A DNA stretch of 34,493 nucleotides from a virus (lineage: Duplodnaviria > Heunggongvirae > Uroviricota > Caudoviricetes), in the IMG/VR virus record IMGVR_UViG_2698536450_000021, positions 1 to 34,493 of that record. One strand, written 5' to 3'. Numbering within the stretch: the first letter of the stretch is position 1; every line of letters begins with the position of its first letter. The notes below the pieces were generated by a model, which saw nothing but the letters and a program-made list of their open reading frames with translations, was not told where the DNA came from and searched no databases. This document shows, in pieces, positions 19,082 to 21,821 of the stretch. The position numbers were made by a program, and so were the translations under genes.

Positions 19082-20478
19082 GCACAAAATTTTATACCCT
19101 GCTGACGGATATTGGCGCGGCGAAACTTGCCAGCGCCGCCGCGCTCGGTGTGCCTTTAAAAATTACCCATATGGCGGTCGGCGATGGCGGCGGAACATTG
19201 CCAACGCCGGACGCAAAGCAGACAGCATTAGTAAATGAGAAACGCCGGGCTGCGCTGAATATGCTTTATATCGACCCGCAGAACAGCAGCCAGATTATTG
19301 CTGAACAGGTGATCCCTGAAAACGAGGGCGGTTGGTGGATACGTGAAGTGGGCCTGTTTGATGAGTCCGGGGCATTGATTGCCGTGGGCAACTGCCCGGA
19401 AAGCTATAAGCCGCAACTGGCTGAAGGCAGCGGGCGCACCCAGACCGTGCGCATGGTGCTGATTACCAGCAGTACGGACAATATCACCCTGAAAATCGAC
19501 CCTGCTGTAGTGCTGGCAACCCGTAAATACGTGGATGATGAAGTCCTGGAATTAAAGCTGTATGTGGATGACCAGATGAGAAACCACATTGCCGCACAAG
19601 ATCCTCATACCCAGTATGCGCAGAAACATAATCCGACATTTACCGGAGAACCAAAAGCGCCGACGCCTGCAGCAGGAAATAACACCACGCGGATTGCGAC
19701 CACTGAGTTTGTTCAGGCCGCTATTACTGCTCTGATTAACGGTGCGCCAGCCACGCTGGACACACTGAAAGAAATTGCCGCAGCCATTAACAATGACCCG
19801 AAATTCAGTACCACCATTAACAATGCGCTGGCACTAAAAGCGCCGCTGTCGAGTCCGGCACTCACCGGAACGCCAACAGCACCTACTGCGGCGCAGTCGG
19901 TCAACAATACACAGATTGCCACTACGGCTTTTGTGAAATCGGCGATTGCAGGAATGGTGGGTTCTGCACCTGCGGCACTGGATACACTGAACGAACTGGC
20001 GGCGGCACTGGGGAATGATCCGAACTTTGCCACGACAATGCTTAATGCGCTGGCAGGTAAACAACCGCTGGACAATACGCTTACCAATTTGAGCGGAAAG
20101 GATGTATCTGGTCTTCTCACATACCTTGGTTTGGGAGAAGCGGCCAAATTGCCTGCGATTAGTGGCTCTTTATCATCATCTGGCTGGATAAAAATCCCTG
20201 TTATAGAGGGGAAGTCTTTTATTATCCAATGGGGAAGAATCGGACCTTCTGATAGTAAAACTGGTGTTGCAACAGGAAGTTATCCTATTGCTTTTCCAAA
20301 TTCTGCATTTATGGCATTTATTGCTGAAAAAACCGCAGTATCCACAGGCCCAATAGGTATTAATTCCTGGGGAGTGTCCGAACTAACAAAAACAGAATTA
20401 AAGGCCATTTGTGCTGCAAGGACTATATCAACTTCAGCCGCAACTGAAACAGGTGATTTTCTGGTACTGGGATATTGA
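19078..20478 (+). CDS. tail fibre protein H (constant N-terminal part joined to variable C-terminal cassette A at the 26-bp crossover site)
   Basis: 466 aa; repeated AxxxxDT and collar-type tail-fibre motifs; C-terminal segment from 20140 is duplicated in inverted orientation at 23363-23701. Confidence 0.9.
   Translation: MSTKFYTLLTDIGAAKLASAAALGVPLKITHMAVGDGGGTLPTPDAKQTALVNEKRRAALNMLYIDPQNSSQIIAEQVIPENEGGWWIREVGLFDESGALIAVGNCPESYKPQLAEGSGRTQTVRMVLITSSTDNITLKIDPAVVLATRKYVDDEVLELKLYVDDQMRNHIAAQDPHTQYAQKHNPTFTGEPKAPTPAAGNNTTRIATTEFVQAAITALINGAPATLDTLKEIAAAINNDPKFSTTINNALALKAPLSSPALTGTPTAPTAAQSVNNTQIATTAFVKSAIAGMVGSAPAALDTLNELAAALGNDPNFATTMLNALAGKQPLDNTLTNLSGKDVSGLLTYLGLGEAAKLPAISGSLSSSGWIKIPVIEGKSFIIQWGRIGPSDSKTGVATGSYPIAFPNSAFMAFIAEKTAVSTGPIGINSWGVSELTKTELKAICAARTISTSAATETGDFLVLGY
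19457..20139. repeat. 683-bp direct repeat, copy 1 (H middle region including crossover site 1); copy 2 at 21139-21821
   Basis: Checked at the start, a middle stretch and the end: identical at a constant offset of 1682 bp. Confidence 0.85.
20114..20139. repeat. gix/hix-like 26-bp invertase crossover site 1 (TTCTCACATACC TT GGTTTGGGAGAA)
   Basis: Imperfect 12-2-12 palindrome resembling hix/gix sites; sits exactly where H sequence changes from unique to inverted-repeat copy. Confidence 0.6.
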
Positions 20479-21137
20479 GCTTCCATAAGGATTATAAAAT
20501 GTCGAGCATAATATACTACAGCTCTATAAATAATGCATTTTACCCTGAGCATTTGAAACAAGAATATATTAAATCTAATTCTTTTCCAGCAGATGCAAAA
20601 CCCGTTAAATATTCTGTTTTCGAAGAATTTGCACTTAAACCAGCACCAGAAGGAAAATACAGGTGCGTTGGTGAAGATGGAATGCCATCATGGGCAGATA
20701 TTCCACCACCAACACATGAGGAACAGATTGCCGCAGCCGAATTGAAAAAGCAGCAATTGATTAACCAGGTCAACGAATACATGAACAGTAAACAATGGCC
20801 CGGTAAAGCGGCTATTGGTCGTCTGAAAGGTGAGGAACTGGCGCAATATAATTTGTGGCTGGATTATCTGGACGCACTGGAACTGGTTGATACCTCCAGT
20901 GCTCCAGATATTGAATGGCCTACGCCTCCGGCAGTTCAGGCCAGATGACATCCGGCGCGGTGCTGGTATCTGTTGCCGTCACCGCGTCAATGTAATCCAG
21001 CACGGCGTTAAGTCGGGTGTTTTCTGTCTGCGTCAGCTTCCGCCCGGCCTGTAATTTCAGTTGAATCAGACTGATAGAAGCCATTGCAGCATCAATCAGC
21101 GACTGGCGCTGTGCTTCTGCCGCTTCTACTGCGGCGC
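20140..21137. repeat. 998-bp perfect inverted repeat, left arm (variable H cassette A + Tfa-A + inverted 3' fragment of Tfa-B); partner at 22704-23701
   Basis: Paired coordinates sum to 43841; identical ORF translations appear on opposite strands in the track (e.g. 20475-20948 + and 22893-23366 -). Confidence 0.9.
20499..20948 (+). CDS. tail fibre assembly chaperone, Tfa-A (P2 gpG / Mu U-like)
   Basis: ATG at 20499 after AAGGA; conserved C-terminal Tfa block; follows the fibre gene. Confidence 0.8.
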   Translation: MSSIIYYSSINNAFYPEHLKQEYIKSNSFPADAKPVKYSVFEEFALKPAPEGKYRCVGEDGMPSWADIPPPTHEEQIAAAELKKQQLINQVNEYMNSKQWPGKAAIGRLKGEELAQYNLWLDYLDALELVDTSSAPDIEWPTPPAVQAR

Positions 21138-21138
21138 A

Positions 21139-21821
21139 TGCTGATTACCAGCAGTACGGACAATATCACCCTGAAAATCGACCCTGCTGTAGTGCTGGCA
21201 ACCCGTAAATACGTGGATGATGAAGTCCTGGAATTAAAGCTGTATGTGGATGACCAGATGAGAAACCACATTGCCGCACAAGATCCTCATACCCAGTATG
21301 CGCAGAAACATAATCCGACATTTACCGGAGAACCAAAAGCGCCGACGCCTGCAGCAGGAAATAACACCACGCGGATTGCGACCACTGAGTTTGTTCAGGC
21401 CGCTATTACTGCTCTGATTAACGGTGCGCCAGCCACGCTGGACACACTGAAAGAAATTGCCGCAGCCATTAACAATGACCCGAAATTCAGTACCACCATT
21501 AACAATGCGCTGGCACTAAAAGCGCCGCTGTCGAGTCCGGCACTCACCGGAACGCCAACAGCACCTACTGCGGCGCAGTCGGTCAACAATACACAGATTG
21601 CCACTACGGCTTTTGTGAAATCGGCGATTGCAGGAATGGTGGGTTCTGCACCTGCGGCACTGGATACACTGAACGAACTGGCGGCGGCACTGGGGAATGA
21701 TCCGAACTTTGCCACGACAATGCTTAATGCGCTGGCAGGTAAACAACCGCTGGACAATACGCTTACCAATTTGAGCGGAAAGGATGTATCTGGTCTTCTC
21801 ACATACCTTGGTTTGGGAGAA
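21139..21821. repeat. 683-bp direct repeat, copy 2 (truncated duplicate of the H middle region, ending in crossover site 3)
   Basis: Identical to 19457-20139; junction with the upstream inverted-repeat arm at 21131-21143. Confidence 0.85.

Follow-up and report, generated by a model that had tools for sequence, protein, structure and literature searches.

The tail-fibre locus described here is an ordinary invertible segment of the Gin/Cin type in a P2-like prophage, adjoining rybB/ybjL. In the sequence analysed (IMG/VR record IMGVR_UViG_2698536450_000021, all 34,493 nucleotides of which are referred to as the window), this locus carries a third crossover site and a 684-bp direct repeat. These two features are quite probably the product of an assembler's join of two orientation states of the same segment. 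The underlying switch belongs to a well-known kind, and the duplication is probably not a new biological arrangement. The initial annotation had left open whether the structure was an assembly artefact or a real rearrangement; the evidence favours the artefact, although not in the form of a plain mis-walk of the assembly graph.

Genes, repeats and crossover sites

The gene set is P2-like, with baseplate genes V/W/J/I, tail fibre H, assembly genes, invertase, sheath, tube and tape measure. The right flank contains RybB, ybjL and ybjM, which identifies the host as E. coli or a close relative. The tail-fibre gene H (19078-20478, plus strand, 466 aa) consists of a constant part, with Pfam Phage_tail_fib at residues 1-150, and a C-terminal cassette, A, in the flipped state, with Gp53-like_C at residues 381-466. 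It is followed by a copy of the tail-fibre assembly gene UA (20475-20948, plus strand; Pfam Caudo_TAP, E=1.8e-35), which belongs to the flipped-state part of the locus. A further H frame on the plus strand (21138-22319) is without the N-terminal part and ends in a different cassette, B; it matched Pfam Collar only, the Phage_tail_fib N-domain being missing. Next to it lies the tfaE-like assembly gene UB (22319-22921, plus strand; Pfam Caudo_TAP), the C-terminal part of which, from about 22631, is 93-96% like the tfa genes of other prophages, e.g. yfdK. The minus strand carries a silent copy of UA (22893-23366), with a translation identical to that of 20475-20948, and a promoterless cassette A C-terminus (23363-23755), a 130-aa ORF with Gp53-like_C. 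The locus contains two mirror-image fibre C-termini with their own assembly genes, A (Gp53-like_C) with UA and B (Collar) with UB.

A Gin-like serine DNA invertase of 188 aa is encoded at 23783-24349 on the plus strand, counted from the ATG; the ORF opens at a TTG at 23777. The protein matched Pfam Resolvase and HTH_7, and could be aligned over its full length with Gin of phage Mu (structure 3UJ3, E=6e-91), the catalytic Ser9 being in place.

Self-comparison of the window revealed two pairs of repeats, the only ones in the entire 34.5 kb. The direct repeat had been reported as a perfect duplicate of 683 bp. It is indeed exact, and its length is 684 nt: copy 1, the middle of H with crossover site 1, lies at 19457-20140, and copy 2, the middle of H with crossover site 2, at 21139-21822, both on the plus strand. 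The other pair, at which the initial annotation only hinted, is an exact inverted repeat of 1012 nt. Its first arm (20126-21137, plus strand) comprises the cassette A C-terminus, UA and 190 nt of the UB 3' end in antisense, and is the exact reverse complement of the second arm (22704-23715, minus strand), which holds the UB 3' end, UA and the cassette A C-terminus in silent orientation. The inverted repeat starts at the central TT of a crossover site. Repeats of 684 and 1012 nt cannot have arisen by chance.

There are three 26-bp crossover sites in the window, two in direct (+) and one in inverted (-) orientation. Site 1 (20114-20139, plus strand) is made up of an H-side half, a TT core and an inner half. 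Site 2 (21796-21821, plus strand), the third site of the initial annotation, is present as described, directly repeated and identical to site 1; both read TTCTCACATACC TT GGTTTGGGAGAA. Site 3 (23702-23727, minus strand) has the same core and inner half, and its outer, invertase-side half differs (TTTTCTTAAACG). Site 3 is inverted relative to sites 1 and 2 and has the same central dinucleotide, TT/AA. Alignments of the window to relatives of opposite orientation overlap at 20126-20140, which places the exchange at the core of the site.

Two inversion states in one sequence

The locus had been read as a copy in the flipped state joined to a copy in the unflipped state. Comparison with relatives bore this out, each side being colinear with prophages in the corresponding state and the junction lying away from a site. 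The stretch from 19078 to 21137, which includes the first arm of the inverted repeat, is colinear with near-identical flipped-state prophages (L003 and L004), with 2 mismatches to L004 over 8 kb. From 21139 onward the window is colinear with the unflipped state. The two copies of the duplicate are 100% identical, yet they stand in opposite inversion states.

When 19457-21138 was removed, the window became colinear, without any gap, with two-site unflipped relatives. The identity of the collapsed window to L163 and L166 was 99.87% over 10.3 kb, and to L165 it was 100%/99.98%, the IS1 of L165 aside. Joined to 19078-19456, the frame at 21138-22319 encodes the 519-aa H that is normal for unflipped relatives, as found in L163-L166. 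Furthermore, the flipped state rebuilt from the window was colinear without gaps with L003 and L004. The collapse and the rebuilt state together indicate that the window consists of a normal locus with two sites and an additional 1682 bp from the flipped state. The sole indel relative to L004, which is 99.96% identical over about 14 kb, sits at the junction.

Both orientations occur in nature, the flipped one in L003-L006 and the unflipped one in L163-L167. Moreover, one IS1-marked prophage has been deposited in opposite states (L004/L165). The identical H-A protein was found in 55 blocks of public assemblies and the identical 130-aa cassette A ORF in 68, and for each of the two the locus was two-site in 24/24 contigs read.

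The three-site arrangement, which the initial annotation had proposed to look for in related genomes, was not seen in any of them: all 48 contigs that were read were two-site, and the exact H-side site was directly duplicated in 0 of its 157 occurrences in 156 other contigs. An exact search for the 25-mer across the junction found it in none of the viral, genome-representative and metagenome contig collections. Megablast of the junction returned no match colinear across it among 5,426 complete E. coli genomes and 50,697 phage records. Eight E. coli matches at a coverage of at least 80% consisted of two separated pieces spanning far more DNA than the query, and both of those that were fetched are ordinary two-site loci. 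Exact look-ups of the product of the chimeric ORF at 21138-22319, with four choices of start, found no gene on record.

The junction and the behaviour of assemblies at this locus

The junction is a single A at 21138, between the two exact repeats, with antisense UB on its left and the middle of H on its right. The left parent reads GCGGCGC up to the break and TATGCTGTGCC beyond it; the right parent reads GTGCGCATGG before the break and TGCTGATTACC after it. The junction itself reads GCGGCGC-A-TGCTGATTACC, and the A fits neither parent at that position. The invertase was considered as the maker of this junction and rejected. Serine recombinases exchange strands precisely, without insertions or deletions. 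The junction lies away from any crossover site, and neither parental sequence resembles the site consensus; the invertase therefore did not make it.

The initial annotation had noted short microhomology at the junction. This holds only if gaps are allowed: the tfa antisense strand reads GCGC-T-ATG-CTG, H reads GCGC-ATG-GTG-CTG and the junction reads GCGCATGCTG, so that the parents share GCGC.ATG.CTG. In a simulation, the gapped parental similarity of 10 nt was equalled by 3-5% of random breakpoint pairs in the region (p about 0.03-0.05). The microhomology had been expected beforehand to argue strongly for a real event; it is only marginally unusual and constitutes weak evidence.

Mixed orientation often disturbs assembly at this locus. 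Of the 157 occurrences of the H-side site, 30 are followed by a contig end no more than 150 nt beyond it, and in six of these the contig stops precisely where the site does; some of the IMG/VR ends may be provirus boundaries rather than true contig ends. One contig, L041, follows a path from H through the segment to H', which is impossible in any real state. In L017, a single-N join lies 475 nt past the site.

Self-comparison of all loci showed the architecture of the window, a direct repeat abutting an inverted repeat, in two further loci, L023 (IMGVR_UViG_2693429728_000004) and L092 (IMGVR_UViG_2693429728_000005), both prophages of IMG genome 2693429728. As in the window, the two copies are in opposite states, the break falls in the same part of tfa and a single position lies between the repeats. 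In L023 and L092 that position is an N, which marks a scaffold join, and the duplication includes the invertase side; in the window it is the untemplated A, and the duplication is on the H side. The pieces joined in L023 and L092 reach 782 to about 820 nt beyond a site and begin 603-697 nt before one. Those in the window reach 998 nt beyond the site, or 1012 nt when counted from the core, and begin 657 nt before it. L023 and L092 share one genome and so represent one pipeline, not two independent cases.

The left break of the window corresponds to 22704 in UB coordinates. Three unrelated contigs end 3-14 nt away (L101 at 22697, L063 at 22701 and L151 at 22718), and other contig ends or N-joins occur nearby in UB at about 22589, 22597, 22651, 22660, about 22661 and 22755. 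This cluster of ends falls inside the C-terminal block of UB, which is multi-copy in E. coli and common to tfa genes of other prophages (e.g. yfdK). Assembly graphs built from short reads would fork at this block. At the right break (19457, 657 nt upstream of the site), contigs of the sample did not end repeatedly, and H genes showed no common mosaic boundary.

Origin of the duplication and relation to known systems

The real locus would consist of the H constant part, a site, about 1.9 kb with two mirror-image cassettes, each a fibre tip with its assembly gene, an inverted site and the Gin-like invertase. The sequenced DNA would have held both orientations, presumably from a mixed source culture. 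One assembly path may have left H by way of the site, entered the flipped state and broken off 998 nt beyond the site, at the edge of the repeated tfa block; the other may have started in H 657 nt upstream of the site and run via the unflipped state into the invertase gene. We suggest that an end-to-end join of the two paths followed, with a single placeholder or unsupported base remaining at 21138. The 1682-bp duplication, the third site and the inverted repeat of 1 kb would all be false products of this join. The junction of the window fits such end-to-end joining of two contigs. A simple mis-traversal of a mixed-orientation graph was rejected, since it would put the junctions at sites and produce inverted copies of H or the invertase gene, as in L041 and part of L092, and not a junction in mid-gene.

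An assembly join is favoured because the two copies are in opposite states with perfect identity, the base between them is untemplated, the lone indel lies at the junction, the left break falls on a hot spot of contig ends, the geometry resembles that of the N-joined scaffolds, and the arrangement is absent elsewhere. The alternative is that the duplication is real, recent and private to this prophage, which we regard as unlikely but deserving of serious weight. It may have arisen by tandem duplication, in the flipped state, of the 1682-bp unit 19457-21138 through illegitimate recombination at short imperfect homology, or by the joining of two sister molecules in opposite states; as the last step, the invertase would flip the segment between sites 2 and 3. 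Several observations speak for a real duplication, and the first three of them also count against an artefact: the window contains no N and reads as continuous sequence across the junction, the right break at 19457 is at no known hot spot of contig ends or mosaic boundary, the gapped similarity of the parents mildly favours an event at the level of DNA, the H reading frame is kept across the junction with an in-frame ATG at 21138, and base-level quality is high elsewhere in the window. However, among slippage-type duplications in E. coli, one untemplated base without clean microhomology is unusual. Moreover, the left break falls where assemblers commonly stop, the geometry matches that of the scaffolds joined by N, and neither the relatives nor the other collections searched contain the structure. 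Assembly trouble at this locus should also be much commoner than a fixed tandem duplication of 1-2 kb that happens to span one given 26-bp site.

It is highly improbable that the locus is a natural multi-site inversion system of the p15B Min or shufflon type, with three functional sites shuffling several cassettes. The three sites are intact and have identical cores, which speaks for such a system. However, the third site sits in a stretch of H copied with 100% identity and adds no further cassette, site 2 is directly repeated with respect to site 1, and a second direct H-side site was found in no relative or other contig. A multi-site system is contradicted by these data, as no distinct cassette is bounded by the extra site and the arrangement is not conserved in relatives.

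If the duplication is an artefact, the record overstates the prophage by 1682 bp, and neither the truncated tail-fibre gene nor the third site in it is genuine; surveys of host-range cassettes or of invertible loci would be misled by such a record. The error would be recognisable by a direct repeat that runs up against an inverted repeat at a crossover site, one odd base separating the two.

If the duplication is real, the prophage would carry a three-site switch with fibre A locked on, in which a truncated H toggles between tips A and B and from which the normal switch could be regained via the 684-bp repeat; that such a switch exists is doubtful. Because the larger segment between sites 1 and 3 carries the same cassette at either end, inverting it would still give H joined to A, and the fibre would stay fixed as type A. 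Only the truncated H, which is without the baseplate-binding N-domain and may be translated from the in-frame ATG at 21138, would switch. The direct repeats had been described as prone to a 1682-bp deletion that restores a classical segment. In a real structure this would be expected to take place by RecA-type homologous recombination across the 684-bp repeat and would not be expected from the invertase. It is established, and stated in PMC11850598, that Gin-family enzymes prefer inverted over same-oriented sites, and because of this preference an invertase-catalysed deletion is unlikely. A real duplication would be a modest but neat case of a duplication that disables and rewires a host-range switch, and an intermediate, caught in the act, of the process by which multi-cassette inversion arrays of the p15B Min kind acquire new sites and cassettes.

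The Min system of plasmid p15B, studied by Sandmeier, Iida and Arber, is reportedly a multiple-inversion system with more than two sites in a tail-fibre locus. The window resembles it in having more than two crossover sites in such a locus. It differs in that Min has several distinct cassettes bounded by sites, whereas the extra site of the window bounds only an exact duplicate.

A parallel for the proposed join is provided by E. coli EC958: at three prophage tail-fibre segments of this strain, about 50% of the PacBio reads showed the alternative orientation, and spurious alternative contigs resulted (Forde et al. 2014, PMC4134206). The authors warn of this type of artefactual duplication. Both cases involve a prophage tail-fibre segment and a culture of mixed orientation, in the window a presumed one, and in both a phage duplication results if the two versions enter one sequence. 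The alternative contigs of EC958 were 8.7-12.7 kb long and were kept separate, whereas the overlaps in the window are 0.66 and 1.0 kb and form part of one continuous sequence.

The locus itself is most similar to the segments of the Gin/Cin/Pin/Hin family, which include the Mu G segment, the P1 C segment, the e14 P segment and those of P2-like prophages such as phage 500465-1 (Wadgaonvirus). It shares with them the adjacent Gin-like serine invertase, the inverted 26-bp sites with a central TT, the constant 5' part of H fused alternately to two cassettes with their assembly genes, and the occurrence of both orientations among near-identical prophages. Once the 1682-bp duplicate is removed there is no difference from these segments; with the duplicate, the window has an extra direct site and a truncated second H.

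Misassembly and inversion at the tail-fibre segment in other contigs

Within contig L041 (IMGVR_UViG_3300029656_000144), the H-side half-site, the outer half of the 26-bp crossover site facing the tail-fibre gene H, was found at both ends of the invertible segment, at 44-70 (+) and 1946-1972 (-). The resulting order, H-segment-H', in which H' is a second, inverted copy of H, is impossible for any real inversion state and L041 is therefore clearly a mis-walk of a mixed-orientation assembly graph. Scaffold joins made by a single N lie within or just beyond the segment in L023 and L092 (IMGVR_UViG_2693429728_000004/5) and in L017 (IMGVR_UViG_2698536341_000022). 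As a result of these joins, the invertase gene and the cassettes are falsely duplicated in L023 and L092. In L017 the join leads into an unrelated tail-gene region, which is inverted.

The same prophage, with an IS1 element within the assembly gene UB, was deposited with the segment in both orientations (L004, GCA_040813075.1, and L165, GCA_040813095.1), indicating that inversion still occurs, or occurred, with IS1 aboard. An overlapping direct repeat of 251 nucleotides was found in the H gene of the metagenome contig L114 (6609-6859 and 6831-7081). The copies, offset by 222 nucleotides, are 97% identical and probably represent genuine repetition within the fibre shaft.

Chromosomal setting of the prophage

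The gene for the RybB sRNA (31716-31794, - strand; 105 bits), the sole match in an Rfam scan of the whole window, directly adjoins the right end of the prophage, which locates the prophage in a chromosome of the E. coli type. A ybjL-like transporter gene (31874-33559, - strand) and ybjM (33829-34206, + strand) follow.

Cargo genes and the reverse transcriptase

Between the tail genes S and V, on the opposite strand, a gene (15633-16568, - strand) encodes a 311-residue FRG-domain protein that matches PDC-S15, a PADLOC candidate defence family. In four relatives (L001, L005, L164 and L167) a DUF2971 gene occupies the same position, indicating that this is a variable cargo slot. The early region carries a D12-class, Dam-like N6-adenine DNA methyltransferase gene (685-1614, + strand).

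The GC content falls to 0.31-0.45 in an island at approximately 4000-7000, around a gene for a 646-residue reverse transcriptase (4892-6832, + strand), which lies between the replication gene and the portal gene. The protein matches Pfam RVT_1 and, with E=2e-217, the RT-Toprim_I-C models of PADLOC, which stand for retron type I-C. The prophage looks like a retron-carrying relative of P2.
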